Both the position numbers and the translations under genes were made by a program. The notes beneath the pieces were generated by a model, which ran no database searches, was not told the DNA's origin, and saw only the letters and a list, made by a program, of their open reading frames with translations. A stretch of DNA of 64,000 nucleotides from contig JAZDFD010000001.1 in assembly GCA_043808155.1 (NCBI GenBank), positions 5,501 through 69,500 on the forward strand, given 5' to 3'. Each line of letters starts with the position of its first letter. The stretch's first letter is position 1. This document shows, piece by piece, positions 640 through 63,984 of the stretch. This DNA is from Candidatus Iainarchaeum sp. (lineage in GTDB: Archaea > Iainarchaeota > Iainarchaeia > Iainarchaeales > JAZDFD01).

Positions 640-1827
640 TTGTTTTTAAAGTTTACAAACATTAGTGATACTATGACTACGAATGTGACTTATGAGTATG
701 CAAATGCTAAAGAGAAATACGATAATGCAAAAACTCCTGAGGAAAAAATGCTGGCACTGCAGGAAATGCAGAGAACCGCACCCGCACACAAAGGCGGAGA
801 AAAACTAAGAAAAGAAATCTCAAAAAAAATGCTGGCACTGAAAAAGCAAATGATAAAAAACAGGGAACAGCAAAAAAAAGCAGGCTCATCTTCTTCCGGA
901 ATGAATGTAAAAAAAGACGGCATAGGGCAGGTTATTTTAGCAGGTTTTGCAAACACAGGAAAAAGCACATTACTCAATAAACTTGCGAAAACAGATGTTG
1001 AAGTTGCGCCTTATCCTTTCACAACAACAAAACCCGAAGTGGGAATGGCACCATACAAAGGTGCAGGACTTCAGGTTGTTGACCTTCCGGCATTAATGAA
1101 AGGCTCGAGTGAAGGAAAAGCCTCCGGAACACAATTGCTTTCAATAATAAGAAATTCAGATGAAGTTGTTTTTGTGCTTAAGGGAAGTAACGCACTCCGC
1201 GAATTCAAAACACTCATGAAGGAAGTCGAAAATGTCAATATGAAATTCAATCAGGAACGACCAAAAATCAAAATTGAAAGGTCTAATTTTAAAGGGGTTA
1301 CAATTTCAGGAAAACAATTCCTGAAAGTTAAGGAAGATGCATTAATTGGTTTTTTGAAAAGCATTGGTTTTCACCATGCATCTGTTGTTTTGTCAGAAGA
1401 CACTACTCTGGAAAAAGTTGCACAATCCATGAATGATACATTAGTTTACAAAAAAGGATTTTTCATCATAAACACTTTTTTTGGTGTACCCTCCCCAAGA
1501 GATATTCAGAAAATAAAGAAAGTTGCAGATGTTATTGAAGTAAATTCACTTGATGAGGAAGAAATTGAAAAAATAAAAGACATGATGTTTGAGAGACTGA
1601 ATAAAATTCTTATTTACACAAAAAAACCAGGCGGAAAAGTGGAAATGGAACACCCGCTTATTTTAGACATCGGAAGTAAAGTAGAAGACGTGCCAGAACA
1701 TCTTCACAAAGATTTTGCAAAAAATCTAAAATTCGTTAAAGTATGGGGCTCTGCAAAATATGACGGACAAAGAGTTTCAAAAGATTATGAATTAAAGAAT
1801 TTAGATATTATTGAAATTTATTCCTGA
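640..1827 (+). CDS. DRG/Obg-family GTPase with C-terminal TGS domain
   Basis: G1 motif GFANTGKST, followed by PYPFTTTKPEVG and a VDLPAL switch region. The C-terminal TGS-like segment ends ...NLDIIEIY. The true start may be M at 673. Confidence 0.8.
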   Translation: MFLKFTNISDTMTTNVTYEYANAKEKYDNAKTPEEKMLALQEMQRTAPAHKGGEKLRKEISKKMLALKKQMIKNREQQKKAGSSSSGMNVKKDGIGQVILAGFANTGKSTLLNKLAKTDVEVAPYPFTTTKPEVGMAPYKGAGLQVVDLPALMKGSSEGKASGTQLLSIIRNSDEVVFVLKGSNALREFKTLMKEVENVNMKFNQERPKIKIERSNFKGVTISGKQFLKVKEDALIGFLKSIGFHHASVVLSEDTTLEKVAQSMNDTLVYKKGFFIINTFFGVPSPRDIQKIKKVADVIEVNSLDEEEIEKIKDMMFERLNKILIYTKKPGGKVEMEHPLILDIGSKVEDVPEHLHKDFAKNLKFVKVWGSAKYDGQRVSKDYELKNLDIIEIYS

Positions 1828-10577: not shown

Positions 10578-12428
10578 GTGCTTTTAGTATGCATGCAATT
10601 CAGAAAAGTAGCAGAGTATTTTGAGAAAATTGAGAAAGTTTCTTCGCGTTTGGAGATGACTGATTTAGTGAGTGAATTACTCTCGAAAGCTTCAAAATCA
10701 GATATTGCTAATGTGATTTATTTAAGCCAGGGGAAACTTGGTCCTGATTTTTTAAGTTTGGAACCAGGGCTGGGGGAAAAACTTGTTATTGAAGCAATTA
10801 CTAAATTTTCAGGTTATGAGAAAATTGAAATTGAAAAGAAATTTAAAAAACAGGGTGATCTGGGTTTAGTTGCATTTGAACTTGCGGAAAAGAAAAAACA
10901 GCAGAGTTTATTTTCAGAAGAATTAAGTGTTGAAAAAGTTTTCAGGAATTTTGAGAAGATTGCAAATGCAGAAGGCGCTGGGAGTCAGGAATCTAAAATC
11001 AGATTGCTTTCCGAGCTTTTGAATTCTGGATCTGCATTGGAAGCTAAATTTTTAGTTCGGGTTCCGTTGGGAACATTAAGATTAGGAATTGGTGATCCTA
11101 CATTGATGGATGCACTTGCACTGAATTATATTGATGAATTTAAAACAGGAAATAAAAAAGTAGTTTCTGAAATTGAAAAAGAAGTTAAAATAAAAAAAGA
11201 AAAAGAACGGGCAGAGGAAATTTCAAGAAAAATAAAAATGAAAATCCGTGAAGGAATTGAAGCAAAGTATAATGTAATGCCTGATTTAGGAGAAATTGCA
11301 GAAAATCTGAAAGCAAATGGTTTGGCGGGTTTGAAAAAAATAAAAATTAAAATTGGGGTGCCCATAAGACCAACACTGGCGGAAAGACTGCCTAGTGCAG
11401 ATGAAATTCTTAAAAAAATTGGCAAGTGTGCAGTTGAACACAAATATGACGGATTTAGATTTCAGGTTCACAAGAAAAATAATGAAGTTACAATTTTCTC
11501 ACGGAAGCAGGAAAATATGACACACATGTTTCCAGAAATTGTTGAAGGTGTGAGAAAACAAATTTCTGCAAAGGAAGCAATTATTGAGGGCGAAGCACTT
11601 GCATTTGATGAAGAAAAGAAAAGATATTACCCCTTTCAGGTTACAATTCAGAGAAAAAGAAAATATGATATTGACCAGAAAGCAGTTGAATTGCCACTGG
11701 AACTTTTTGTTTTTGATGTGATGTATGTTGATGGAAAAGAAACCATGAGCAAGAAATTTTCTGAAAGAAGAAAAATACTTGAAAAATTGATTAAGAAAGG
11801 GCCAGTAATAAAACCAACTGAAAGTATTATTTCAGAATCAGTTGGAGAAATTGAAACATTCTTTGAAAATGCGATTGCGAAAGGATTGGAAGGAATAATT
11901 GCGAAGGATTTGAATGCACCTTATATTGCAGGTGCGCGAAAGTATGCATGGATTAAGCTGAAGAAATCATATTCTGACAAAATGACGGATTCAGTTGATG
12001 TTGTTATAATTGGTTATGACAAAGGCAAGGGGCAGAGAACTAAATTTGGTTTGGGAAATTTGCTGACAGCATCATATGATGAGGAAAGCGATATGTTTAA
12101 TTCGGTTGCAAGAATTGGAACAGGAATTACTGAAGAAAGATTAAAAGAATTAGAAGAAATGCTAAGCAAAACTAAGGTTTCTTCAAAACCAGCGCGTGTA
12201 AATTCCGAAATTAAGCCAGATGTGTGGGTTGAACCAAAATATGTTATTGAAGTTATTGCAGATGAAGTTACGCAAAGCCCCCTGCATATGTGTGCGTTTG
12301 ATAAAAAAGAAAAAACAGGTCTCGCACTGAGATTTCCCAGAATGGTTTCATTTAGAGTTGATAAATCACCTGAAGAAGCAACAACGGATTTTGAAATTAT
12401 GAAAATGTACAAACAGCAAACGAAGTAA
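10578..12428 (+). CDS. lig: ATP-dependent DNA ligase
   Basis: Adenylation motif EHKYDGFRFQVHK (KxDG), an OB-fold region and a conserved N-terminal DNA-binding domain. The probable start is M at 10593. Confidence 0.9.
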   Translation: MLLVCMQFRKVAEYFEKIEKVSSRLEMTDLVSELLSKASKSDIANVIYLSQGKLGPDFLSLEPGLGEKLVIEAITKFSGYEKIEIEKKFKKQGDLGLVAFELAEKKKQQSLFSEELSVEKVFRNFEKIANAEGAGSQESKIRLLSELLNSGSALEAKFLVRVPLGTLRLGIGDPTLMDALALNYIDEFKTGNKKVVSEIEKEVKIKKEKERAEEISRKIKMKIREGIEAKYNVMPDLGEIAENLKANGLAGLKKIKIKIGVPIRPTLAERLPSADEILKKIGKCAVEHKYDGFRFQVHKKNNEVTIFSRKQENMTHMFPEIVEGVRKQISAKEAIIEGEALAFDEEKKRYYPFQVTIQRKRKYDIDQKAVELPLELFVFDVMYVDGKETMSKKFSERRKILEKLIKKGPVIKPTESIISESVGEIETFFENAIAKGLEGIIAKDLNAPYIAGARKYAWIKLKKSYSDKMTDSVDVVIIGYDKGKGQRTKFGLGNLLTASYDEESDMFNSVARIGTGITEERLKELEEMLSKTKVSSKPARVNSEIKPDVWVEPKYVIEVIADEVTQSPLHMCAFDKKEKTGLALRFPRMVSFRVDKSPEEATTDFEIMKMYKQQTK

Positions 12429-40360: not shown

Positions 40361-40501
40361 GGGCCTGTGGCGCAACGGATAGCGCAGCTGCCTCCTAACG
40401 GACAGATCCGTTAACGATCTGTATGTGCGGGGTTTTCAACCCCGCGATAATAATACGTGGGAGCGAGCAGAAGGTTGAGAGTTCGATTCTCTCCGGGCCC
40501 G
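40361..40501 (+). tRNA. tRNA-Arg (anticodon CCT) with ~68-nt intron at 37/38 (about 40398..40465)
   Basis: Acceptor GGGCCTG pairs with CGGGCCC, D-arm GCGC-AACGGATA-GCGC, anticodon stem GCTGC pairs with GCAGA, loop CTCCTA(A), T-arm GAGAG-TTCGATT-CTCTC. Intron 3' GGAG pairs with loop CTCC in a BHB-like arrangement. The intron contains hairpin gcggggttttcaaccccgc. Confidence 0.8.
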
Positions 40502-54004: not shown

Positions 54005-54673
54005 GTGACCTTCAGAAAGTTTAATATACAAAAAATGCCTAATACTGAGATGCCAGTATTAGATGTTTTTGAATCCCAAAATTTACTTAAAAAATACGGA
54101 ATTCCTGTTGTTAAAAGTGATTTGTGTAAAAATGAAGCTTCTTTGACTTCTGCTTTGAAAACAACTAGATTTCCTTTAGCAATGAAGGTTGTTTCCTCTG
54201 CCATATCGCATAAAACAGAGGCTCAGGGCGTAAAATTAGGGGTTTCCTCAGCCTTAGAAGCTAAAAAAGCCTTTAATCAGCTCAAAAAACTCAGGGGATT
54301 TGAGGGCGCTCTGGTTCAGGAAATGCTTTCTGGTACTGAGATTATTATTGGTGGAAAACGCGACGCTACTTTTGGACCAACTGTGCTCTTTGGTTTGGGC
54401 GGTATTTTCGTTGAGGTTATGAAGGATGTTTCCCTGCGCGTTTGCCCTATTAGTTCCCGTGATGCTGCTGAAATGATTTCTGAAATTAAGGGTTATAAAT
54501 TACTCACTGGTTTCCGCGGTTCTGAACCTGTGAAACTTTCTGCAATTAATGATTGTTTACTGAAGACTTCCAAAATGATGCTTCAGGAGGAACAAATCAA
54601 AGAACTTGATATTAACCCCTTATTTGCTGATTCTAAAGGTGTGAAAGCAGTGGATGCGCGTGTAGTAATTTAA
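54005..54673 (+). CDS. ATP-grasp protein resembling the beta subunit of ADP-forming acetyl-CoA synthetase (orphan; no alpha subunit nearby)
   Basis: LLKKYGIPVVKS...FPLAMKVVS...HKTEAQGVKLGV pattern of the ACD beta ATP-grasp fold. The likely start is M at about 54035-54050. Confidence 0.55.
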   Translation: MTFRKFNIQKMPNTEMPVLDVFESQNLLKKYGIPVVKSDLCKNEASLTSALKTTRFPLAMKVVSSAISHKTEAQGVKLGVSSALEAKKAFNQLKKLRGFEGALVQEMLSGTEIIIGGKRDATFGPTVLFGLGGIFVEVMKDVSLRVCPISSRDAAEMISEIKGYKLLTGFRGSEPVKLSAINDCLLKTSKMMLQEEQIKELDINPLFADSKGVKAVDARVVI

Positions 54674-54969: not shown

Positions 54970-55251
54970 GTGGAGATTTTTTGGACAAAACATGCGCTGG
55001 AAAGGTTTATGGAAAGAGCCTTGCTTTATGGTTTGGAAAGAATAGAAGTTGAGGAAATAATCAAAAAACAACTAGTAAGAATTAGAAAAGGTTTTGACAA
55101 AAAGTACAAAAAGGACTGCTTTGAAACCATTGGGGTGGTTGCGAACAAATTTTTCACTGTCCAAAAAGCGGAAGACAAAAAGAGCATAATTGTGATAACA
55201 CTGTGGGAATCAAACAAAAAGGAGGTTGAATTATGGTTATCAAAAAAATAA
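54970..55251 (+). CDS. Small toxin-like protein (DUF4258-like)
   Basis: N-terminal WTKHALERFMER...I pattern. Overlaps the downstream antitoxin-like gene by 19 nt. Confidence 0.4.
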   Translation: MEIFWTKHALERFMERALLYGLERIEVEEIIKKQLVRIRKGFDKKYKKDCFETIGVVANKFFTVQKAEDKKSIIVITLWESNKKEVELWLSKK

Positions 55252-55568
55252 TAAAGTGTCCGGTATGCGAAGGCGAAGCAACTCTTTCAAATGAAAGCAT
55301 AGAATTATTTAAGGGATTGATTAAGTTAAAGAACAACCCAATATACAAATGTAGCTCATGCAAAGAAAAGTTCGCAACAGGGAAAATAGTTGACAAGAGT
55401 CTGCAGGAAGCAAGAAAAGAATTCAGTTTTGCACGGAAATTGATTTCAACAGGCGGAAGCCTTGCAATAACCATCCCGCCAGACCTGGCAAGATTCTATA
55501 AGCTGAAAAAAGGAGAAACCATCGATTTGGTGCCTGCAGGAGAACATCTACTGAAAGTAAAACTTTAA
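55233..55568 (+). CDS. Zinc-ribbon plus AbrB/SpoVT-like antitoxin-type DNA-binding protein
   Basis: CPVCEG...CSSC zinc ribbon followed by the swapped-hairpin motif GGSLAITIPPDLARFYKLKKGETIDL. Confidence 0.5.
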   Translation: MVIKKIIKCPVCEGEATLSNESIELFKGLIKLKNNPIYKCSSCKEKFATGKIVDKSLQEARKEFSFARKLISTGGSLAITIPPDLARFYKLKKGETIDLVPAGEHLLKVKL

Positions 55569-55740
55569 GGTTTTCTTTTTAAACTATAAATTTAATCAGT
55601 TAACACTATACCTTACAATAGGCAATGATGATGTGAAAACCAATTTGAGCAGATAAAACAGGCTATTATTGAGGGTAAGAAAGAGCTGATTTTACAGTAA
55701 ATTTGCGATATATTTAAATACTTTAATCATATAAACTTAT

Positions 55741-56025
55741 ATGATAACTATGGATTCGAGAACAACTGTTTTGCATTACCCGAGGCTGGATACTGTGCTA
55801 ATGATAGAGGATGCCATAAAGAACGCAAAAGATTATCCTAAAAGAACAGAGCTTTGGAAAAAACTGCCAAAGAAAGTAATGTACCAAACCTACAAAATAG
55901 TGGTTGACTATCTGATTGATTCAAGAAAAGTAATGCTTACCAAAGACGACAAGCTTGTCTGGATTTTCGCAGACAACGAAAAACTCAAAAAACTAATCGA
56001 AGAGAGCGTGCCAGCAAATGCGTGA
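55741..56025 (+). CDS. Small protein, putative antitoxin (paralog of 3..275)
   Basis: Same length and conserved TVLM(I/V)E(D/N) pattern as the ORF at 3..275. Its stop overlaps the RelE-like gene. Confidence 0.4.
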   Translation: MITMDSRTTVLHYPRLDTVLMIEDAIKNAKDYPKRTELWKKLPKKVMYQTYKIVVDYLIDSRKVMLTKDDKLVWIFADNEKLKKLIEESVPANA

Positions 56026-56360
56026 AATAAAGTATTCGGCAGAGTTTAACAAAGACTATGTAAAACTAAGGAAAAGAGCAGACAATGGAAACTCTGAAGC
56101 ACAATACCTGCTTGACTTAATCAGCAAGGCAACTGCCAAGCTTGCTGAAAATCCTGAGGCAGGCAAAAAAAATTCCAAGAAAACTCTGGCCAAAAGAATA
56201 TGTGCAAAAATACGGAGTGAATAATTTATGGAAATACAACCTTGACTCAAACTGGCGACTCATTTACACAGTGACAGGCAACCAAGTGGACTTGTTCCTA
56301 ATCTACTTGGAATATATGGATCACAAAAAATACAACAGAAAATTCGGCTACAAAGGTTAA
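56018..56360 (+). pseudogene. RelE/ParE-like toxin gene (paralog of 272..625) disrupted by a +1 frameshift in an A8 homopolymer
   Basis: The N-terminal half is in one frame (56018..56224) and the C-terminal half in another (56142..56360). Removing one A from the A8 run at about 56163-56170 restores ...ENPEAGKKIPRKLWPKEY..., colinear with the copy at 272..625. Confidence 0.55.
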
Positions 56361-56525
56361 GTGCAATTTAACATCAAGATTAGCATTTCATTAATTTTCA
56401 TGTTACAACAAAATTACCAAATCAGTAACATTCGTGTAGCAATCGCTATTTATAAAAAACTTTTTCTCTTTATAAAGAATTGAGTGGAATTGCTTCCCTT
56501 TTAGAAACGCTTTTAAACAGACCAA

Positions 56526-56966
56526 TTGTATAAACTTATGATGAACAAAAAATTATGTTATGGAATCTTAGCAGCCTGTGTTTTAGCTATTGTGATGATT
56601 GGCCTATTTATGTTGAACCCTCTTTTGGATGTAGAAGACGATCCATTTGGTGTGCCGCCAAAAGGAACTTCGCCTAATTGTGGTCCTGAAGATAGATACA
56701 AATTTGATGTAGCGATTAATTCAAAAAATGATTTCATAAACTTCATAAAAAACAATGAAATAAATCAATGGGTAAGATTAGATAATTTTAGAGATGAACA
56801 AGAAGGTAACATCAATTGGGATGACGTTTTAACTGCGATTAAAATTGAAAAAGTTGTTAGTAGAACTGTTTATGTTCTTGACTATAATCCGCAATTTTGT
56901 TCAGGATTTACTTTAAAAATGACTAATGATGGCCACATTTCCGTGTATGGTTGTTGTGGGATATAA
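56526..56966 (+). CDS. Secreted or membrane-anchored hypothetical protein
   Basis: N-terminal TM or signal peptide, with six Cys in the mature region. Confidence 0.35.
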   Translation: MYKLMMNKKLCYGILAACVLAIVMIGLFMLNPLLDVEDDPFGVPPKGTSPNCGPEDRYKFDVAINSKNDFINFIKNNEINQWVRLDNFRDEQEGNINWDDVLTAIKIEKVVSRTVYVLDYNPQFCSGFTLKMTNDGHISVYGCCGI

Positions 56967-57358
56967 AAAATCATTAAAAATATAGCACACATTGTGACTT
57001 TTTCAAGCAAATTTTTTCTTTAATCCACAATTAATTCGTATGAAAGCCCTGCTAACCGGAAGCTTTGACCATATTCTTTTAGTAGTAGCAACGCCCCCCC
57101 CTCCCATATTTCAGGCGACGATGATGTTATTGCCCTAATTGCAATAGGCATAACTTAAAAATATTCAAAAATCAACTTTTTAGTTGATTTTTTTTCAACC
57201 GCAGGTATATTAACACTCGAGACAGGGATATAACTGACAAACCCGAACTTGTTCGCCGGTGAGTCCCGATGCACTCCTTCGGGAGTGCATCACCCGTCTA
57301 AAAAAAGACAAAGAGAGTTGGTCGCAGGGAAATTTTCAGGAGCTCCTTTTTTTCTGCG

Positions 57359-58210
57359 CTATTTGAAATAAGTCATGAATTTTTTCCTTAAAACTTCGGC
57401 CATTTGTTGGTTTTTTGTGATTTTTACCATTATGTCTACTTTTCGTGATGCAAATTTTTTTCTTGTGAACTCTGAAAACAAATCGGTTAGATTAGAATTT
57501 TTTTGATAGAATTGATCGATTACTTTCTTTGATTCTTCTGAATATTCAAAGACAAGTATGGAATCACCATGAACAATAATCTCATTGTCAAATTCATCAA
57601 AGTTCACACCTAGTTTTACTCCACCCCATCCATTTTTTAAGAATTCTTTTGATGCCCATTTATCAAAAGGGAAATTATATCGCGTAACCATATACGAAAG
57701 TGGATTTTTTTTTATTACACTTCTCAGAATTAACATGTCACCGAACTTAAAATTTAAAGGCCACCAAACATGCCTTGTAATTCCAAGTGGTCCAGAGGGT
57801 GTCGAACCAATAAAAACTTGTTTTGCCAATAAATCTGCAATTGTTATAACAACATTCGAATAATCGTCAAATCTCCATTCAATTGATCCTTCGAAATTTG
57901 GATCTAGCGTATATTTTTTCTGTGAATTTGAATAAACATTCTCAATTCTGTCAATAAATCGTCTCTGGTTTGAAATCCATAATTTATGTAATTGGTAGGT
58001 TTTACCCTCTTTTAATATGACATTCATAGCTTCAAGTTCGGTTAATTTTTTATGCACGGCTTGGTAAGAAATGTCTTTGTCACATCTCTTAATAATTAAA
58101 TTGTAAATTTCTTTAGCACTTAATGGCCATTTTTCAGAAAGCACAAAAATAATTGCTTCCTCAGTAGAAGCTTTCTTTGGATTCATTTTTAAAATTTCAA
58201 AATATGACAT
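57359..58210 (-). CDS. wHTH-domain protein, member A of a tandem paralog triplet
   Basis: N-terminal winged-helix-like WPLSAKEIY...SYQAVHKKLTELE and shared downstream motifs (HVWWPL, FDKW, C-terminal YFK). The start was taken at MSYFEIL. Confidence 0.5.
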   Translation of the reverse strand: MSYFEILKMNPKKASTEEAIIFVLSEKWPLSAKEIYNLIIKRCDKDISYQAVHKKLTELEAMNVILKEGKTYQLHKLWISNQRRFIDRIENVYSNSQKKYTLDPNFEGSIEWRFDDYSNVVITIADLLAKQVFIGSTPSGPLGITRHVWWPLNFKFGDMLILRSVIKKNPLSYMVTRYNFPFDKWASKEFLKNGWGGVKLGVNFDEFDNEIIVHGDSILVFEYSEESKKVIDQFYQKNSNLTDLFSEFTRKKFASRKVDIMVKITKNQQMAEVLRKKFMTYFK

Positions 58211-58211
58211 T

Positions 58212-59069
58212 TTATTTCTCCTTGAAATAAGGCAAAACTTGTTGCCTAACAATACCTGCTAACTCAGGATCTTTGATTAATTCAACTTTGATGCTTGCTT
58301 TTCGATTTCTAAAATTATCTAATGCATAATATTTGAACAAAGAACTTAGATTATGAATTTTAGAATATATTTCATCCATAAATTTTTTGGTTTCTTCTGA
58401 AAAAGTGACTTTTGTAATTGTGTCACCGAAAGCACCAATGTCGGACTTAGAACAATCCAATTCCGAAATACCGCATTTGCTCTTAAAGCCCGCTCTACAA
58501 TATTGGTCGGAAATCCATTTATCAAAAGGCGTGTCTTGTTTGAATATAGAATATATGCCGCCAGGATGCACTTGGACCATGCGTACTAATAATTGAAAAT
58601 CCATGAAATTAAATTTTAAAAGCCACCAACCATGATCAAAAGTCCCAACACCCATTTCCGGCCCATTACCAATCAGTATTTTTTTAGTATAAAGTGAACC
58701 CATTGTTGTTGAAAATAAACTTAAATCATTAAACTTCATAGTTACAGTTCCTTCAAAATCAGGACTAACATCGTATTTGCCTTCTGACTCCGCGTATTTG
58801 TTATTTAGACTTTCAAAAAATTCTTTTCTATTAAAAAGCCATGTTTTACTAAGAGAATAATCTTTTCCATTTTTTTCAACAATGTTTTCATCTTCCAATT
58901 CATTCAACGCTTTGTGGATAGCTTGGTATGAAACATTCAGCCCGTAAGTTTTCAAAACTCGAGAATATATTTCCTTAGCAGAAAGCGGCCATTCATTTCC
59001 TAAAATTAGAATGGCGTTGTCTTTTGTTGAGGACGGTTTTGAATAAAGAGGTGAATTTAACGAATTCAT
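58212..59069 (-). CDS. wHTH-domain protein, member B of the tandem paralog triplet
   Basis: Colinear with members A and C (WPLSAKEIY, SYQAIHKALNELE, HGWWLL, FDKW, PYFKEK). Confidence 0.5.
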   Translation of the reverse strand: MNSLNSPLYSKPSSTKDNAILILGNEWPLSAKEIYSRVLKTYGLNVSYQAIHKALNELEDENIVEKNGKDYSLSKTWLFNRKEFFESLNNKYAESEGKYDVSPDFEGTVTMKFNDLSLFSTTMGSLYTKKILIGNGPEMGVGTFDHGWWLLKFNFMDFQLLVRMVQVHPGGIYSIFKQDTPFDKWISDQYCRAGFKSKCGISELDCSKSDIGAFGDTITKVTFSEETKKFMDEIYSKIHNLSSLFKYYALDNFRNRKASIKVELIKDPELAGIVRQQVLPYFKEK

Positions 59070-59902
59070 TTTTTCGTCTCCTTGAAATACTCCAAAGTTT
59101 CTTGCCTTAACTGTTCGGCTAAATGTTTGTCTCTAATAACATGGATTGTTATTCTTGCAGGTTTCATAAAAACTTTTTCAAATAATTCACCAGTGTCAAG
59201 TTCAGAAATGTCTTTAACACTTGAAAATATTGTGTCTAATTCTTTTTTTATGTGCAAAGGATAAAACACCTGAATAACATGATCGCCAATTATTGCTAAA
59301 TCAATGGTATTTGCAACATCAACGCCCATTTTTTCATTTGCACCTCTTTTTGTAAAATAATCAACACACCACTTGTCTACAACTGTAGACCCACGAGTTA
59401 AATCATATAATTCAGTTTCATCACAAACTTTTTTCAGATTTTGATATTTGTCATTATTCAAAAACAATGGAATCCATGCATGATTCCAATGCAAACACAA
59501 AACAGGTTTTTCTTTTGGTTCCCCAACTATTTTTGTTACAACTTCTAAAAGCATCATGTCAGTTTCATACAATGAATTTGTGATTATTGTTTTTGGTTCC
59601 AAAAACTCTGAAGAGTTATATTTTTTTCGGAGAATGCCCTTAGCAAAAGATTCAATTTCATCCGCCCATTGATAATTTAATGCATATTCGCCATTGGCTT
59701 TCAATAATACGTTTTGACTTTCTAGTTCACTTAAAGCCTTATAAACCGCCTGAGATGTTAAAGTACCATTAAACTGTTTAGAAAGCCGTGATTTGATATC
59801 TTTGGCTGAAAGTTGGGATTCATCACTAAGGATACTTATTATGTAATCTTTAGTCCCTTTCCCCTGTGAGCCTAAATGGGGCACGACTAGATTTATTGTC
59901 AT
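59066..59902 (-). CDS. wHTH-domain protein, member C of the tandem paralog triplet
   Basis: LSAKDIKSRL...SQAVYKALSELE, HWNHAWIPL, VDKW, C-terminal EYFKETKK. It overlaps member B by 4 nt. Confidence 0.5.
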   Translation of the reverse strand: MTINLVVPHLGSQGKGTKDYIISILSDESQLSAKDIKSRLSKQFNGTLTSQAVYKALSELESQNVLLKANGEYALNYQWADEIESFAKGILRKKYNSSEFLEPKTIITNSLYETDMMLLEVVTKIVGEPKEKPVLCLHWNHAWIPLFLNNDKYQNLKKVCDETELYDLTRGSTVVDKWCVDYFTKRGANEKMGVDVANTIDLAIIGDHVIQVFYPLHIKKELDTIFSSVKDISELDTGELFEKVFMKPARITIHVIRDKHLAEQLRQETLEYFKETKK

Positions 59903-59971
59903 AGTATTAGAATATGTGGTGAATAATTCTTAAAAAGCAAGTATTTGATTAGAAATTTCAAAAATATTAAC

Positions 59972-61246
59972 TTATTTGCCAAAACTGGCTAAACCAATTG
60001 TTTCATTAAGGCATTTAAGAAGATTCTCTTCAGGAACGTATATCTCGCTTGCACAACAGTAAACGCCTAAAAATGGGGAGTTGCCAAGTGCCTCTCTTAA
60101 ATACTGCCTCTCCACATCTATTTTTTCCATCATTGCCATAACTCTTGGCACTGGACTGAATATAATAGTAAAATCGGGAGTTATTTCTTCTGCTACAGTT
60201 ACTGCAATATCTTTAGCAGCTTTTAATATGTCCTCTCCTTTTCCCCGGCAGAGGTAAAGTGTTTTTTCTTCTACGTTTCTGGCAAAAAGAATCGCATCTC
60301 CGATAACACACAGGGGTGTGACCAGCCAGTAATTTCCCTTATCGTCCTTTTCTGCAGGAATTTCATATATTGTCATAAGCACGGGGTTTGTTTTCCATTG
60401 ATTTTCGAGTTCGGCAGGAATTCCATAAACCTCTTTTAAGCCCTCCCATGCGGGTTTGCCATTTATTTCAAAGGCAAGGCTACCACTCGCTTTTGTTATT
60501 TCCATTTTTTTTCCGGTTGGTTTTAGCCCATGCTTGTACAATGTCCTACTTTTGACATTTGAAGAGATAAGCAAGAACACAACTGAATCACTATACACAT
60601 TGTTGTTTAAAAACTGAAAATTTCTTGTACCCTTAAAATCGTCAAATGCCCCACCACCAAAGATTGGAATTTTACCCTTACTTTCATCAACCATTCCTTG
60701 CAGCACCTCTTCATATTTGGCAGGTCCTGTGCCCTTCATTGCCATAAACTTTGAAAGTGCGGGAAACATGGCTTTGCTTATGCCCATTTTCATCATGCTT
60801 TTCATTCCTGGAATGTCAGGAAACTTCATACCAGAAGGGAATGCAATCCCGTATTTATCTTTATATTTGCTATCTTTTAGTTGCTCTATAGCCATCTTGA
60901 CTGCTTGTCTTCCTGCATTTACAGGGTTGGTTCTTGAACCACCACCGACACCAACTCCAACATCCAAGTCGCCGAAAATGCACATTACCCCAACCCCCCT
61001 AGCATAAACTCTTTCAGGGGTTAACACTGCTGCTCCAGTACATCCCACCACAGGGGCATCAATAATTTTCTTGATTTCCGTCAGCATCTTCTTCAGGTTT
61101 TTTTCATAATGAATAGTAGAAAAAACAATTGCTACTTTTGGGTTTTGTTCATTTCCAAGACTTTTTGTTGCTGCTTCTCTACCAGCCTCAACTGCATCTA
61201 AGTTATCAGACGTTCCCACAATTGCATTAAGTTTGAAGTTGGCCAT
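59972..61246 (-). CDS. FIST-domain sensor protein
   Basis: FIST N-terminal pattern (VAIVFSTIHY ... APVVGCTGAAVL) and a FIST-C-like second half, about 420 aa. Confidence 0.65.
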   Translation of the reverse strand: MANFKLNAIVGTSDNLDAVEAGREAATKSLGNEQNPKVAIVFSTIHYEKNLKKMLTEIKKIIDAPVVGCTGAAVLTPERVYARGVGVMCIFGDLDVGVGVGGGSRTNPVNAGRQAVKMAIEQLKDSKYKDKYGIAFPSGMKFPDIPGMKSMMKMGISKAMFPALSKFMAMKGTGPAKYEEVLQGMVDESKGKIPIFGGGAFDDFKGTRNFQFLNNNVYSDSVVFLLISSNVKSRTLYKHGLKPTGKKMEITKASGSLAFEINGKPAWEGLKEVYGIPAELENQWKTNPVLMTIYEIPAEKDDKGNYWLVTPLCVIGDAILFARNVEEKTLYLCRGKGEDILKAAKDIAVTVAEEITPDFTIIFSPVPRVMAMMEKIDVERQYLREALGNSPFLGVYCCASEIYVPEENLLKCLNETIGLASFGK

Positions 61247-61469
61247 AATGAGTCACCTAGACAGTTTATAAAAGCAATTCATATAATGCACTGAACTACT
61301 ATATTAACATTTCACCTGCAATGTCTATTTTTCATTTGTCAGCTAAAAACTAGTTTCTGCCCAACGCTTTGGAGGCATACATAATTTTTGGATAAAAAAG
61401 AGAATAACAAATATTAAAAAGATTGATTGAGTAAGAAATAGATTATATAACCAAAAAGAATGATAAGAA

Positions 61470-62807
61470 ATGTTGGATGTTGAAAACATAAGAAGGCATT
61501 TTCCAGCAATACAATCTGGCAGAATAGCAACAAATAATGCTTCAACTACCCAAATACCAGACAAACTGCTTAGCTTACAAAAGGAAATAGCGTTAACATA
61601 CGAAAACGTACACAGAGGACATTCTTCAGCATCAATTAAAACCACTAGCTTATTTGAAAACGCCTATAAAGTAATAGCTAACTTTATTGGAGCGGAATCC
61701 TGGAGAAATGTAGTAATCTGTAGGGGTGCCACAGAAGCAATAAACAAAGTCATGTATTCCCTGATGACCGAATTTAAAGATGGCGACAATTTAGTTACAA
61801 CTTACCTTGAGCATAACTCTAATTATGTTCCATGGTACGGCTTAACAAAAGAAATATTACCGCGATTCGGTATCAATGTCGAATGCAGGCTCGCTAAATT
61901 TGACAAGGAAAGCGGAGAGCTAGATCTCGAACACATGGCTGAACTTGTAGATAAAAGAACAAAAATTGTGTGTTGTACTGGTGCATCAAACTTTCTTGGA
62001 ACAAAACCACCTATAAACAAAATAAGAAAAATTGCCAATGATAGTGGATACAAACAGCCGAATGGAATAAACCGTTCATATATGCTAATAGACGGTGCAC
62101 AGCTGGTGCCAAATACTTATTTGGACGTTGTAAAAGAAGACATAGACTTTCTAGCTTGGTCTTTTCATAAAATGCTTGCGCCTTTTGGTATCGGGGCGTT
62201 GTACGCCAAAAAGGAAATCTTGGAAAGCATGAGGTGCTTTCAATACGGAGGGGATATGATCGCTGATGGGCAAGTAAGCCCAGAACACGTTGGCTACAAT
62301 GAACTGCCATGGAAATTCACAGCTGGTACTCCGAACATACTGGGCACCATAGTTGCTGGCGAAGCCACAGAATTCTTGGTTGATGTAGTACTTGGCAGAG
62401 TGGGAGAGAAAAAATATGGAGACATTACTCACCCTACTACAAAAAGAAGTGATATTAAAAAGGTCATGTACGCTGTAGAGCATCACGAACAAAAACTTAC
62501 TCAATACCTTATCGATAAACTAACAGCTATTCCTGAAATTACACTTTACGGTCCGAAAAATGCGGAGAGAAAAACACCCTGCATATCTTTTAATGCAGAA
62601 GGCAAAACAGCATTCCAAATAGCAGAGGAATTGAATAAGAGAAATATTGAATCAAGAGCCGGATGCCACTGTGCAACTTTAGCGCATTTTTTTTATGAGC
62701 TCGACCCGCCTGCAAGCTGTAGAATAAGTCCCTACATATATAACACAATGAACGAAATGAAGTATGTTGTGGATGCAATAGAAGATATAGTGCGCACGCC
62801 TAGCTGA
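61470..62807 (+). CDS. Class V aminotransferase-fold PLP enzyme (cysteine desulfurase SufS/CsdA-like)
   Basis: PLP-lysine motif SFHKMLAPFGIGALY and a C-terminal active-site Cys region (RAGCHCA). Confidence 0.8.
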   Translation: MLDVENIRRHFPAIQSGRIATNNASTTQIPDKLLSLQKEIALTYENVHRGHSSASIKTTSLFENAYKVIANFIGAESWRNVVICRGATEAINKVMYSLMTEFKDGDNLVTTYLEHNSNYVPWYGLTKEILPRFGINVECRLAKFDKESGELDLEHMAELVDKRTKIVCCTGASNFLGTKPPINKIRKIANDSGYKQPNGINRSYMLIDGAQLVPNTYLDVVKEDIDFLAWSFHKMLAPFGIGALYAKKEILESMRCFQYGGDMIADGQVSPEHVGYNELPWKFTAGTPNILGTIVAGEATEFLVDVVLGRVGEKKYGDITHPTTKRSDIKKVMYAVEHHEQKLTQYLIDKLTAIPEITLYGPKNAERKTPCISFNAEGKTAFQIAEELNKRNIESRAGCHCATLAHFFYELDPPASCRISPYIYNTMNEMKYVVDAIEDIVRTPS

Positions 62808-63162
62808 TGATTTTTTTTATTTTCCTTTTTGTATTTTCTATTTCTAAATTTAGTAAACCTCTGTTTGCAAGTTCGGGGATTACTACAATCAAACTATTAT
62901 TTCGGCTTATCGGCTCTGTAATTACTACATACTTACCTATCTCGAAAGTAGCCCTAGTATTCCCATAATCATAAAATTGGTCAATCAAATCAAATAATCG
63001 GTCAGTTGTCTTTACTAGAAGAACCCATAAATCAACATTTTTCACTTTAATCTTAGAAGGGACAATTCCTTCCAACCCTTTCTTAGCGACCATGCAAGCT
63101 AATACATCATCTAGTTTAAGTAAATCATTTAATACTTTAAGTATTTCTTCTCTTTTTGTCAC
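62800..63162 (-). CDS. Roadblock/LC7 (MglB-like) domain protein
   Basis: About 120 aa with GLEGIVPSK...TRATFEIGKYVVIT, typical of Roadblock/LC7. Confidence 0.65.
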   Translation of the reverse strand: MTKREEILKVLNDLLKLDDVLACMVAKKGLEGIVPSKIKVKNVDLWVLLVKTTDRLFDLIDQFYDYGNTRATFEIGKYVVITEPISRNNSLIVVIPELANRGLLNLEIENTKRKIKKIIS

Positions 63163-63219: not shown

Positions 63220-63984
63220 TTATAAGTCAATTTCCTTTTCCTTAATTTCAATTCCTTTTGTAGTCATGTCATAGGCAAGAGAACCTTTTTCATGATCGCT
63301 ATAACGCATTTTTCTTATCCTCAAAATTCTAAATGCTGATGCCCCTGCACTCATATAATTCAAAACAATAACCCCATCAGCAATAAACTCAGTAGTCTGA
63401 TCTGCACTCAAGTAATGTGATTCCTCTGGCAATTCAGAAGTAAGCAAAACAGTAGCCCGGAATAATTTTAATTTCCCGATTAATCTGTAGAGCATTGCTT
63501 TGGATAATGTTTTTTCGGTGTTGGGAAATGGGGAAACTGTGTCTGCTACTTGGATTAGAGAGAATGCAGAGTTGCCTTTCATTCCCGAAATTAGAAGTGA
63601 ATCTGTTAATGTTGTTAATGAATCAATAACCATTCTTGATGGTTCAAAGGAAGTGTAAGCATCATAAATTCTTTGTAATGCATTTTCTGCTTTTGTTACT
63701 TCAATATATTCAATTCTGAGAAGATTTTTTCTGATAAGGTCTTCCAAATCCCAGCCATATGCTGAGGCTTGTTTGTTAAGTTCTTCTTCGGATTGTTCTG
63801 TGCTGACGTAAAGGCCTCGTTCTCCGAACATTTTTGCTCCGTTGTAGAGGTACTGCATGCCAAGTGTACTTTTTCCTGTACCTGCTCCCCCTGAAACTAA
63901 AACAAGGTTGCCTTGAGGAATGCCCCCATTAAGTGCTTTGTCAAGTCCTTCAATTCCTGTTTTTACACGTTCAATGTCTGTCAT
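63220..63984 (-). CDS. KaiC-like (RecA-superfamily) ATPase
   Basis: Walker A LVSGGAGTGKSTLGMQY and the KaiC/RadA-like single-domain architecture. Confidence 0.8.
   Translation of the reverse strand: MTDIERVKTGIEGLDKALNGGIPQGNLVLVSGGAGTGKSTLGMQYLYNGAKMFGERGLYVSTEQSEEELNKQASAYGWDLEDLIRKNLLRIEYIEVTKAENALQRIYDAYTSFEPSRMVIDSLTTLTDSLLISGMKGNSAFSLIQVADTVSPFPNTEKTLSKAMLYRLIGKLKLFRATVLLTSELPEESHYLSADQTTEFIADGVIVLNYMSAGASAFRILRIRKMRYSDHEKGSLAYDMTTKGIEIKEKEIDL

Follow-up and report, generated by a model that had tools for sequence, protein, structure and literature searches.

Gene regulation is almost unknown in the DPANN archaea, whose genomes are tiny, come mostly from uncultured organisms and contain few recognisable regulators. 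The window analysed here, a stretch of 64,000 nt from Candidatus Iainarchaeum sp. (contig JAZDFD010000001.1, positions 5,501 to 69,500), carries three consecutive minus-strand genes that encode related proteins of similar size next to a gene for a FIST-domain protein, and it raises the question of what such a tandem set of divergent paralogs does. A first-pass annotation, made from the letters alone, had proposed a regulatory or possibly defence-type module. The reading preferred here, held with somewhat more confidence than doubt, is that the triplet is an array of DPANN regulators built like TrmB, with one shared operator and diversified signal domains, that serves as the output of KaiC-like modules.

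A coupled array from a large DPANN family

The three open reading frames proposed in the first pass are all present: paralog A, the first gene of the array (59066..59902, minus strand, 278 aa), paralog B (58212..59069, minus strand, 285 aa), and paralog C, the last gene (57359..58210, minus strand, 283 aa from its ATG). For gene C, a longer TTG-initiated frame extends to 58252, and the NCBI annotation (P0017) gives a 275-aa version; protein B is identical to the NCBI entry 'hypothetical protein V1672_00405' of Candidatus Diapherotrites. The genes abut or overlap as had been described: the TGA stop of A and the ATG of B share ATGA, a 4-nt overlap, and a single base separates the TAA stop of B from the ATG of C. 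A GGAG Shine-Dalgarno-like motif lies 8 nt 5' of the B start (59078..59081) and another 7 nt 5' of the C start (58218..58221), both embedded in the codons for the conserved C-terminal YFKE of the preceding gene. Translational coupling of this kind, with 4-nt overlaps and a Shine-Dalgarno motif within the last codons of the preceding gene, would fix the proportions in which the paralogs are made.

Identity between the paralogs varies with the alignment and amounts to 30-33% for A and B, 24-26% for A and C, and 35-36% for B and C; the measured range of 24-36% bears out the by-eye estimate of about 25-35%. Each protein matches the family HMM at E 1e-91 to 1e-116 (A, 2.5e-91; C, 5e-112), so homology is far above chance. 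The motifs WPLSAKEIY, SYQA[VI]HK, H.WW.L, FDKW and YFK are common to the triplet as had been noticed, with the correction that the first two are degenerate in A.

A, B and C are members of a large, so far unnamed regulator family that is restricted to DPANN. At 50% identity clustering, about 2,380 clusters fall in the family at a threshold of E<=1e-3, and the stricter E<=1e-30 leaves 566. The 79 non-redundant loci collected here, with 182 family members, all come from DPANN (Iainarchaeia, Micrarchaeota, Aenigmatarchaeota, Woese-, Pace- and Nanoarchaeia), and some bins hold at least 8-9 copies per genome. These loci include 38 arrays of 2-8 copies, and 42 of the 78 array junctions are exactly -4 nt; the triplet, initially singled out as a special three-gene system, is one case of a family-wide arrangement. 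For 92 of 109 arrayed members, the closest relative lies in another species' locus (that of A, at 51% identity, is L009 8289-9110), and neighbouring copies within arrays have a mean identity of 31%. Because of these two observations, the paralog lineages are considered ancient and maintained within arrays, in keeping with the old paralog expansion that had been suspected.

The family has no match in Pfam, NCBIfam or PDB sequences, and HMM libraries assign it to no described family. Public database entries for it carry no informative name, a few being called 'transcriptional repressor' or 'Fe2+ or Zn2+ uptake regulation protein'. The latter label is a misannotation: PF01475 (Fur) matches only the winged helix-turn-helix (wHTH) domain, below the Pfam cutoff, in 11 of 18 members (window proteins reach at best 17 bits versus a cutoff of 23.1), and neither its size nor its fold relates the C-terminal domain to the metal-binding dimerisation domain of Fur. 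The searchable literature contains no mention of the family. The opposite expectation, that the proteins would belong to a well-characterised regulator family with single copies in ordinary contexts, held in part: the predicted fold resembles TrmB, and a single copy in L006 adjoins NrdR and ribonucleotide reductase, but sequence searches assign the proteins to no such family. Although Pfam, NCBIfam and routine annotation all miss it, the family may rank among the main sets of DPANN transcription regulators.

Predicted fold and candidate operator

The N-terminal winged helix anticipated from the shared motifs gives only sub-threshold Pfam matches (FUR, HTH_12, HTH_45) and is clear in the AlphaFold model of B (pLDDT 84 at full length), where it occupies residues 15-73. 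In the model, a 21-residue helix (75-95) directly follows the wing; it would probably form a dimerising coiled coil. The remainder (about 100-285), which the first-pass reader had not recognised and to which no HMM library or PDB sequence gives an assignment, is predicted to be a single alpha/beta domain of ~190 aa with no barrel (C-domain alone: pLDDT 89, pTM 0.86). The top full-length Foldseek match was TrmB (3qph_A; E 8.8e-5, probability 1.00, 285 columns), at a TM-score of only 0.31 and an rmsd of 8.8; TrmB was not among the top 50 matches of the C-domain alone. For that domain, the best match was PPK1 (2o8r; E 5.9e-4, TM 0.47, 193 columns), a moderate match by one method only, and other matches were TDP1, vaccinia F13 and SauUSI, all of which are phospholipase D (PLD)-type folds. 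The effector domain of TrmB is also placed in the Pfam PLD clan.

No RecA or KaiC structure appeared among the fold matches of the C-domain. The proposal that it is an inactivated, MEDS-like KaiC domain was rejected, as hhalign of the family's C-domain profile against 44 neighbouring KaiC-like proteins gave a probability of 0.3%. The HxK(x)4D (HKD) catalytic motif of PLD enzymes is absent: conserved His146 lies within RHxWWPL, where position +2 lacks Lys and position +7 lacks Asp, and the corresponding His, followed by W rather than K, is present in only 75% of members. A fairly conserved Asp is also found, and pocket-like residues are partly conserved among C-domains whose mean pairwise identity is 21%. 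The signal domain would thus be a phospholipase-D-like fold of ~190 aa without its catalytic motif. In PLD-type enzymes, the conserved His is a phospho-acceptor.

At the other end of the protein, the recognition helix [ST]YQxxHK is retained in 136 of 140 members, at a conservation of 92-100% across the family; paralog A deviates (TSQAVYK) and is the sole member of the 140 to lack both Tyr48 and His52. It is unusual for a transcription-factor family to combine numerous ancient paralogs with a single, invariant DNA-reading helix.

A palindrome, ATCAACC-N4-GGTTGAT, is found at many promoters of the family, and the regions upstream of module genes show an enrichment of its k-mers (p about 1e-7). 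With <=2 mismatches, 54 sites occur in 1.23 Mb of loci versus about 3.6 in shuffles (15-fold), and 46 of these are intergenic. About 17 sites lie upstream of family genes and 4 more inside over-extended family ORF calls; extended upstream windows give 25 site-gene pairs. In several DPANN phyla the palindrome directly abuts a TTTTAA box located 25-35 nt before the start codon, and at many family promoters it covers the TATA-like element at the expected BRE position. It is also present upstream of metabolic-type genes (radical SAM, HAD, FAD oxidoreductase). We infer that the family binds this palindrome, dimers reading it through the near-invariant helix. At the family's own promoters the 3' half-site touches or overlaps the TATA-like box, so a bound dimer would cover the BRE/TATA position and thereby regulate its own genes, repression being the simplest mode. 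Since the DNA-reading helix is constant and the C-domains have diverged, an array would bring several inputs to one operator, through several regulators that may also form heterodimers; how a single operator integrates several inputs is the question that the array pattern raises.

In the window, the only copy of the palindrome with 2 mismatches, ATCAACTTTTTAGTTGAT, lies at 57171..57188. A single such site in the window alone is not above chance; what makes it significant is that it lies 170 nt from the array and has conserved flanks. Together with an additional half-site, TTCAACC, and a TATA-like GGTATATTAA (57194..57213, plus strand), it forms a promoter module, and the 57194..57213 part is near-invariant in the window, L009, L001, L010, L085 and L086. 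This module is followed by a candidate structured small RNA of ~120 nt (57233..57353, plus strand), convergent with gene C, with a hairpin at 57268..57291 capped by a UUCG loop and a run of seven T at 57347..57353. The candidate is kept at the equivalent place in L009, L085 and L086, convergent with the array end, and shows compensatory changes in three hairpin pairs. A covariance model retrieves only the copies in the window and these three loci; there is no Rfam match, and the region contains no ORF of >=60 aa. As read from the sequence, the spacer between the FIST gene and A (59903..59971, minus strand) holds a TATA-like TTTTTAAG and only a degenerate half-site (TAATCAAAT), with no palindrome at <=3 mismatches.

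Neighbouring genes and rival readings

The FIST-domain protein (59972..61246, minus strand, 424 aa) had been placed correctly, 69 nt upstream of A; PF08495 (E 2.2e-30, 106 bits) and PF10442 (E 8.4e-9, 36 bits) both match above their cutoffs. FIST homologs occur in 18 of the 79 family loci, often <320 nt from a family gene. Beyond the region covered by the first-pass annotation are two more informative partners. One is a KaiC-like ATPase of the RecA superfamily (63220..63984, minus strand, 254 aa; PF06745, E 8.5e-56) with an intact Walker A motif, GGAGTGKS; the other is a conserved 120-aa protein, w120 (62800..63162, minus strand), with no match in Pfam or PDB sequences and with 12 homologs at 39-61% identity, each adjoining a KaiC-like gene. 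Between the FIST and w120 genes lies a class V aminotransferase or cysteine-desulfurase-like gene (61470..62807, plus strand; PF00266, E 4.4e-85), a peripheral gene that holds the same position in L022 and L036 and is possibly associated with the module.

Of the 79 family loci, 41 contain a KaiC-like gene, which in 22 cases lies no more than 165 nt from a family gene; among the 46 well-flanked loci, 27 contain one. Two module types recur, KaiC with V4R and KaiC with w120 and FIST; in the latter, w120 always follows the KaiC-like gene. The family wHTH is fused to FIST in L082 and to V4R in L054, and whole family proteins are fused to a HAD phosphatase or to a methyltransferase. The KaiC-like ATPase, w120, V4R and FIST proteins would accordingly be linked to the family regulators in signalling, perhaps physically: the probable sources of input are the adjoining KaiC-like ATPase, together with its adaptor (w120 or V4R), and the FIST sensor, and the family would supply such KaiC-like signalling modules with their DNA-binding output. 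A more elaborate form of this proposal is offered tentatively, as possible rather than probable. In it, the KaiC-like ATPase with V4R, w120 and FIST controls paralog arrays that act at one operator through different PLD-like receivers and mixed dimers, and the conserved His is modified and then reset by the fused HAD phosphatases.

The family could instead consist of stand-alone regulators of the TrmB style, in which each C-domain binds a different metabolite and the KaiC, FIST and V4R genes are mere targets or neighbours. This is unlikely, although several observations fit it, namely the TrmB-like architecture and palindromic operator, the highly divergent C-domains with their partly conserved pocket-like residues, the palindromes that precede radical SAM, HAD and FAD oxidoreductase genes, and the 16 of 46 well-flanked loci that have no KaiC, V4R or FIST gene. 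However, the adjacency to KaiC-like genes is very tight, the replacement of the C-domain by FIST or V4R in fusions points to one shared signalling context, and the family lacks the barrel subdomain in which TrmB binds sugars.

An abundant nucleoid-associated role, with low sequence specificity and with arrays that supply dosage and variant subunits, has a precedent in TrmBL2, which is listed as a chromosomal protein in a review of TrmB (PMC4158304). The very large, multi-copy family, the invariant DNA-contacting helix among paralogs, the size of ~280 aa and the missing sugar-binding barrel all resemble what such proteins would show (for the last two, TrmBL2; PMC4158304), but we regard this role as quite improbable, given that a specific palindrome is strongly over-represented and precisely placed at family promoters and that both the association with sensor and ATPase genes and the fusions to sensor domains suit regulators that respond to signals.

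Finally, an active PLD-like phosphotransferase or nuclease aimed by the wHTH, possibly in a defence or mobile-element system, would agree with the matches to the SauUSI nuclease and to the phosphotransfer enzymes PPK1 and TDP1, with the fairly conserved His and Asp and with toxin-antitoxin-like genes downstream in the window, but is highly improbable, because HxK(x)4D is missing, the His precedes W and is lacking in 25% of members, the toxin-antitoxin-like genes are an insertion absent from the close relative L086 and not conserved at other family loci, PADLOC gave noise-level matches to the wHTH only (best, Csa3, E 0.009), and tblastn of 50,697 phage and 72,556 plasmid records found no family homologs. 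The suggested defence function, and with it the co-occurrence with mobile elements that was to be looked for, was thus not borne out.

Comparison with known systems

The preferred reading, a regulator array that answers to KaiC-like modules, takes the TrmB family (TrmB, TrmBL1/Tgr, TrmBL2; 3qph) as its structural model. Both have a Tyr in the recognition helix and, as predicted for the family, a wHTH, a long helix and an alpha/beta effector-type domain in that order, as well as a palindromic operator at or near BRE/TATA (TATCAC-N5-GTGATA for TrmB versus ATCAACC-N4-GGTTGAT for the family, where binding is predicted). For TrmB, this architecture and palindromic operators at BRE/TATA have been described, and TrmB-like proteins are known to autoregulate (PMC4158304). 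Unlike TrmB, however, the family lacks the second, beta-barrel subdomain, occurs only in DPANN, has its ancient paralogs in coupled arrays of up to 8, and is associated with genes for KaiC-like, V4R and FIST proteins, not with sugar transporters. Sequence similarity to TrmB is not detectable: the family profile misses TrmB among PDB sequences, PF01978 (TrmB-type wHTH) matches 1 of 18 members at E 0.046, below its cutoff, and PF11495 (TrmB effector-binding domain) matches 0 of 18. The PLD superfamily (PPK1 C-terminal domains, TDP1, F13 and the SauUSI nuclease domain) provides the best fold matches to the C-domain and differs from it by the HxK(x)4D signature.

The analysis provides a definition of the family, its predicted fold, a candidate operator with its promoter geometry, and the conserved partner genes. 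KaiC-like ATPases have been proposed in general terms to organise archaeal signalling (Makarova, Galperin and Koonin 2017, mBio, as relayed in PMC5847659 and PMC10983859), and in that relayed form the proposal has so far been without defined outputs. The loci described here share with those hubs a single-domain KaiC-like ATPase beside predicted inputs (FIST, V4R) and a DNA-binding output, and they offer a concrete candidate for that output. If the more elaborate, tentative proposal is true, DPANN archaea would have in these modules a signalling system specific to their lineage and comparable to two-component signalling, built around KaiC-like ATPases, with a defined DNA target and, in the lineage of the window, a small RNA controlled by the same operator.

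Gene triplet, family and paralog arrays

The window (G+C approximately 34%) derives from a metagenome-assembled genome of Candidatus Diapherotrites (DPANN), and ORF calling bore out the three consecutive minus-strand winged-helix (wHTH) genes reported in the first-pass annotation, here called A (59066..59902, 278 aa), B (58212..59069, 285 aa) and C (57359..58210, 283 aa). The abutting or overlapping stops and starts described there were also recovered: the A stop and the B start share an ATGA overlap, and a single base separates the TAA stop of B from the ATG of C. GGAG is located 7-8 nt 5' of the B and C starts, inside the codons with which the preceding gene encodes its conserved C-terminal '...YFKE'. 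Likewise, the gene upstream of A (59972..61246) does encode a FIST protein, and both of its FIST domains exceed Pfam cutoffs. Identity is 24-33% for A-B and A-C and 35-36% for B-C, the value varying with the alignment; the motifs that the proteins were said to share are present in the paralogs, except that the N-terminal ones are degenerate in A. NCBI lists a protein with exactly the sequence of B as 'hypothetical protein V1672_00405', on a 94-kb contig.

Individual searches with A, B and C and with 18 members against Pfam, NCBIfam and PADLOC yielded no family placement, the only matches being sub-threshold winged-helix matches (FUR, HTH_12, HTH_45) to residues ~15-75 of A, B and C; profiles of 3, 100 and 70 members gave no family match among all PDB sequences. 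A family name is absent from databases and the searchable literature, and members are publicly labelled 'hypothetical protein', generic 'transcriptional regulator' or Fur. The Fur label was ruled out as a misannotation, since the match covers the wHTH only. A word-indexed search returned only 16 relatives; an exhaustive profile search, clustered at 50% identity, returned 2,380 clusters at E<=1e-3, 1,831 at E<=1e-10 and 566 at E<=1e-30; the proteins are almost all 265-290 aa long. Among species-representative genomes, members occur only in DPANN lineages (Iainarchaeum/Diapherotrites, Micrarchaeota, Aenigmatarchaeota, Woese-, Pace- and Nanoarchaeia). A small number of short family contigs sit in bins labelled as other lineages, and these we take to be mis-binned. 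A profile of the C-domain only, searched against 5.8 billion proteins, returned family-length proteins and no other architecture.

ORFs were called in all fetched loci and scored with the family HMM, which gave 182 family genes in 79 non-redundant loci. These include 38 same-strand arrays of at least two copies (18 pairs, 10 triplets, 4 of four, 4 of five, 1 of six and 1 of eight), and the exact 4-nt overlap recurs at 42 of 78 array junctions. Of 109 arrayed genes, 92 have their nearest relative in the locus of another species, and neighbouring copies average 31% identity; these sequence relationships indicate that the array duplications are ancient. A five-gene array in locus L009 holds orthologs of A (51%) and B (48%) in the same relative order. 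Arrays are common across loci, and the triplet is therefore a single case of a pattern seen throughout the family and not a special three-component system. Coupled translation would hold the paralogs at set ratios, a sensible arrangement if mixed dimers are formed, and we infer that the paralogs heterodimerise.

Recognition helix, shared palindrome and candidate small RNA

Conservation of the recognition helix was measured over 100 members that are pairwise less than 50% identical. In this helix, S/T-Y-Q-A-V/I-H-K, residues Tyr48, Gln49, Ala50, His52 and Lys53 are conserved at 92-100%; Trp77 is conserved at 99%, and pairwise identity of the C-domain averages 21%. The pattern [ST]YQxxHK is kept in 136 of 140 full-length members. 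Such conservation is unusual in a paralog-rich regulator family, and the near-invariant helix predicts a common DNA target. The helix of A (residues 47-53) reads TSQAVYK, making A the sole member among the 140 without both Tyr48 and His52; the DNA specificity of A may have been lost or altered. Its L009 ortholog, B and C all carry the canonical helix.

A k-mer test of 130 upstream regions (family, KaiC-like and FIST genes) against 580 others from the same loci revealed two enriched k-mer families. The first, AAATCAACC/GGTTGATTT (p ~1e-7), resolves to the palindrome ATCAACC-N4-GGTTGAT. A count over 1.23 Mb of loci gave 7 palindromes with no mismatch (0 in shuffled controls), 23 with one mismatch (0.2) and 24 with two (3.4), and 46 of these 54 copies are intergenic. 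Approximately 17 were called upstream of family genes, 4 more lie inside over-extended family ORF calls, and extended upstream windows gave 25 palindrome-gene pairs. The 3' half-site abuts a TTTTAA-type TATA-like box, with the start codon ~25-35 nt further, and in many promoters it is fused with the TATA element (ATCAACCAAAAGGTTTAAAA). Palindromes were found in loci of Iainarchaeia, Pace-/Nanoarchaeia and Aenigmatarchaeota, a spread that matches the invariance of the helix across phyla.

Other genes adjoining palindromes include those for radical-SAM proteins, a HAD hydrolase, a FAD oxidoreductase and, in four loci, a small TrmB-type wHTH protein. This ~130-aa protein has the palindrome in its promoter and exceeds the PF01978 cutoff in L013 (8595..8978), with further copies in L012 (2901..3296), L010 (19272..19685) and L014 (16459..16947); the palindrome binder could alternatively be this protein.

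The second k-mer family, TACATAA/CTACATAAC (p ~2e-9), precedes 27 of 130 module genes versus 22 of 580 others in the form (C)TACATAA(C), mostly in divergent spacers between KaiC-like and family genes (for example in L033, L080, L011, L039 and L050). The copy in the window, cATACATAAt near 61377, lies in the divergent FIST/aminotransferase spacer, 131 nt upstream of FIST.

The only palindrome in the window, ATCAACTTTTTAGTTGAT (57171..57188), is located 170 nt past the end of C and is by itself not above chance for 64 kb; the spacer upstream of the array (59903..59971) holds a degenerate half-site only. Together with TTCAACC and GGTATATTAA, the palindrome forms a promoter-like module (57171..57213) that recurs with hardly a change in L009, L001, L010 and two metagenomic contigs (L085 and L086). 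The same module drives ~105-aa wHTH-only relatives of the family in L001 (4172..4486, minus strand) and L010 (13931..14257, plus strand); what follows it in the window, L009, L085 and L086 is a ~120-nt non-coding stretch rich in G+C. In all four loci this stretch (57233..57353, plus strand, in the window) is convergent with the last family gene and faces its 3' end. The homologs of the stretch are located at 11832..11700 (minus) in L009, 608..745 (plus) in L085 and 833..690 (minus) in L086. It contains a central 10-bp UUCG-capped hairpin and ends in a T7 run, and the pairing is kept despite sequence change, with compensatory changes, seen in three homologs, at three pairs among just four sequences. 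There was no family match in Rfam, and a covariance model run over all loci recovered only its four source sequences. We consider the stretch to be a candidate small RNA that is specific to this lineage and lies under the family operator.

A block of small genes (54970..56966) separates an ATP-grasp gene (54005..54673) from the promoter of the candidate small RNA and comprises a DUF4258-like gene (54970..55251), a MazE/AbrB-like gene (55233..55568), a ParE-like gene (56142..56360) and a 146-aa ORF (56526..56966). In the close relative L086 (690..1558) the block is absent and the ATP-grasp homolog directly adjoins the promoter, which suggests that the block is a toxin-antitoxin islet acquired by insertion. 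Elsewhere in the window, a 141-nt Rfam tRNA match (40361..40501, plus strand) that has no ARAGORN call is possibly an intron-containing tRNA gene.

KaiC-like neighbourhoods, partners and fusions

Genes for a single-domain KaiC-like ATPase (PF06745) and for its partners recur beside the family. Of 79 loci, 41 hold a KaiC-like gene, as do 27 of the 46 loci with 3 kb or more of flank on each side; in 22 of the 41 the KaiC-like gene lies at most 165 nt from a family gene, often divergently transcribed, and this proximity far exceeds random placement within +/-10 kb. Two types of module were observed. In the first, the KaiC-like gene is accompanied by a protein with the adaptor/sensor domain V4R; in the second it is accompanied by w120, a 120-aa protein in the window, and FIST, sometimes with a class V aminotransferase between them. 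The window carries a complete module of the second type, consisting of the KaiC-like gene (63220..63984), w120 (62800..63162), the aminotransferase (61470..62807, between w120 and FIST) and FIST, followed by A-B-C. Several such loci have an extra family gene divergent from the KaiC-like gene, and the corresponding spot falls past the last base of the window. The window protein w120 and its 11 homologs are 120-130 aa long and well conserved (39-61% identity), and in FIST-type modules the gene always comes next after the KaiC-like gene. Searches of w120 against Pfam and PDB sequences gave no match; its pattern is possibly Roadblock/LC7-like.

Furthermore, the family wHTH is joined in one protein to V4R in L054 and to FIST in L082, and because of these fusions sensor domains can take the place of the family C-domain. 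Full-length family proteins also carry C-terminal additions: a HAD phosphatase (PF12710) in several independent ~515-aa cases (P0115, P0126, P0127, P0130, P0200 and L049 8493..10049), and a SAM-dependent methyltransferase in a 566-aa protein (L077 9959..11659). These fusions support a functional link.

Predicted fold, proposed role and relation to TrmB

The AlphaFold2 model of B, built on an 18-sequence alignment, is confident (pLDDT 84) and comprises a winged helix (15-73), a 21-residue helix (75-95) and an alpha/beta domain; the C-domain modelled alone scores higher (pLDDT 89, pTM 0.86). The best Foldseek match of the full-length model in the PDB is Pyrococcus furiosus TrmB (3qph, E 8.8e-5), in an alignment that spans all 285 residues at a TM of only 0.31. 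The isolated C-domain matches polyphosphate kinase PPK1 (E 5.9e-4, TM 0.47) and, more weakly, TDP1, vaccinia F13 and the SauUSI nuclease domain, all of the phospholipase D (PLD) fold class, and TrmB is not within its top 50 matches. Pfam places the TrmB effector domain in the PLD clan, and if it belongs there the two sets of matches would be consistent. The predicted fold may be TrmB-like, as judged by Foldseek only. The most conserved C-domain residues are His146 (75%), Asp183 (84%), Gly194, Asp210 and Gly215-Asp216; His146 and Asp183-Lys184-Trp185 are kept in A, B and C. At the sequence level, an inactivated-KaiC (MEDS-like) C-domain and kinship with the neighbouring V4R, FIST or w120 were both rejected (hhalign probabilities of 0.1-3.2%).

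The best-supported reading is that the family consists of TrmB-like DNA-binding regulators that are the output of KaiC-like modules. Dimers would form through the long helix and would read one shared palindrome overlapping the BRE/TATA position. We infer that the family itself binds the palindrome, rather than, for example, the small TrmB-type protein, and binding would repress. The diversified C-domains would receive signals, with KaiC, FIST or V4R presumably acting upstream of the family and not as its targets, and KaiC-like ATPase modules that have FIST, V4R or w120 partners would use the family as their output layer. Such an output layer fits the general proposal, cited in PMC5847659 and PMC10983859, that KaiC-like ATPases are hubs of archaeal signalling.

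Among the rival explanations, the proteins could be stand-alone metabolite sensors, against which stand the recurrent KaiC-like neighbours and the fusions, or chromatin proteins of the TrmBL2 kind, against which stands the promoter position of the palindrome. An active PLD-type enzyme would accord with the fold class of the C-domain, but the HxK(x)4D catalytic motif was not found there. The defence-type module suggested in the first-pass annotation found no support, as PADLOC gave only sub-threshold wHTH matches, tblastn against 50,697 phage and 72,556 plasmid records gave none, and the toxin-antitoxin-like genes (~54970..56360) are an insertion relative to L086; on these searches a defence or mobile-element role was rejected.

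TrmB starts with a wHTH in which a Tyr contacts DNA, followed by a coiled-coil helix and then by an effector domain; the first subdomain of the latter is a sheet of eight strands with flanking helices (PMC4158304). In the predicted model the family has the corresponding order of wHTH, long helix and alpha/beta domain, yet no sequence-based test placed it within TrmB, and it is without the sugar-binding barrel that TrmB adds after the first subdomain (PMC4158304). The family palindrome also resembles TrmB-family operators, such as TATCAC-N5-GTGATA, in style and position (PMC4158304). Taken together, by architecture the family is of a known kind, a TrmB-type one-component wHTH regulator in a KaiC-like signalling neighbourhood, and it is distinctive in its restriction to DPANN, its arrays of ancient paralogs, its invariant recognition helix and its conserved operator.
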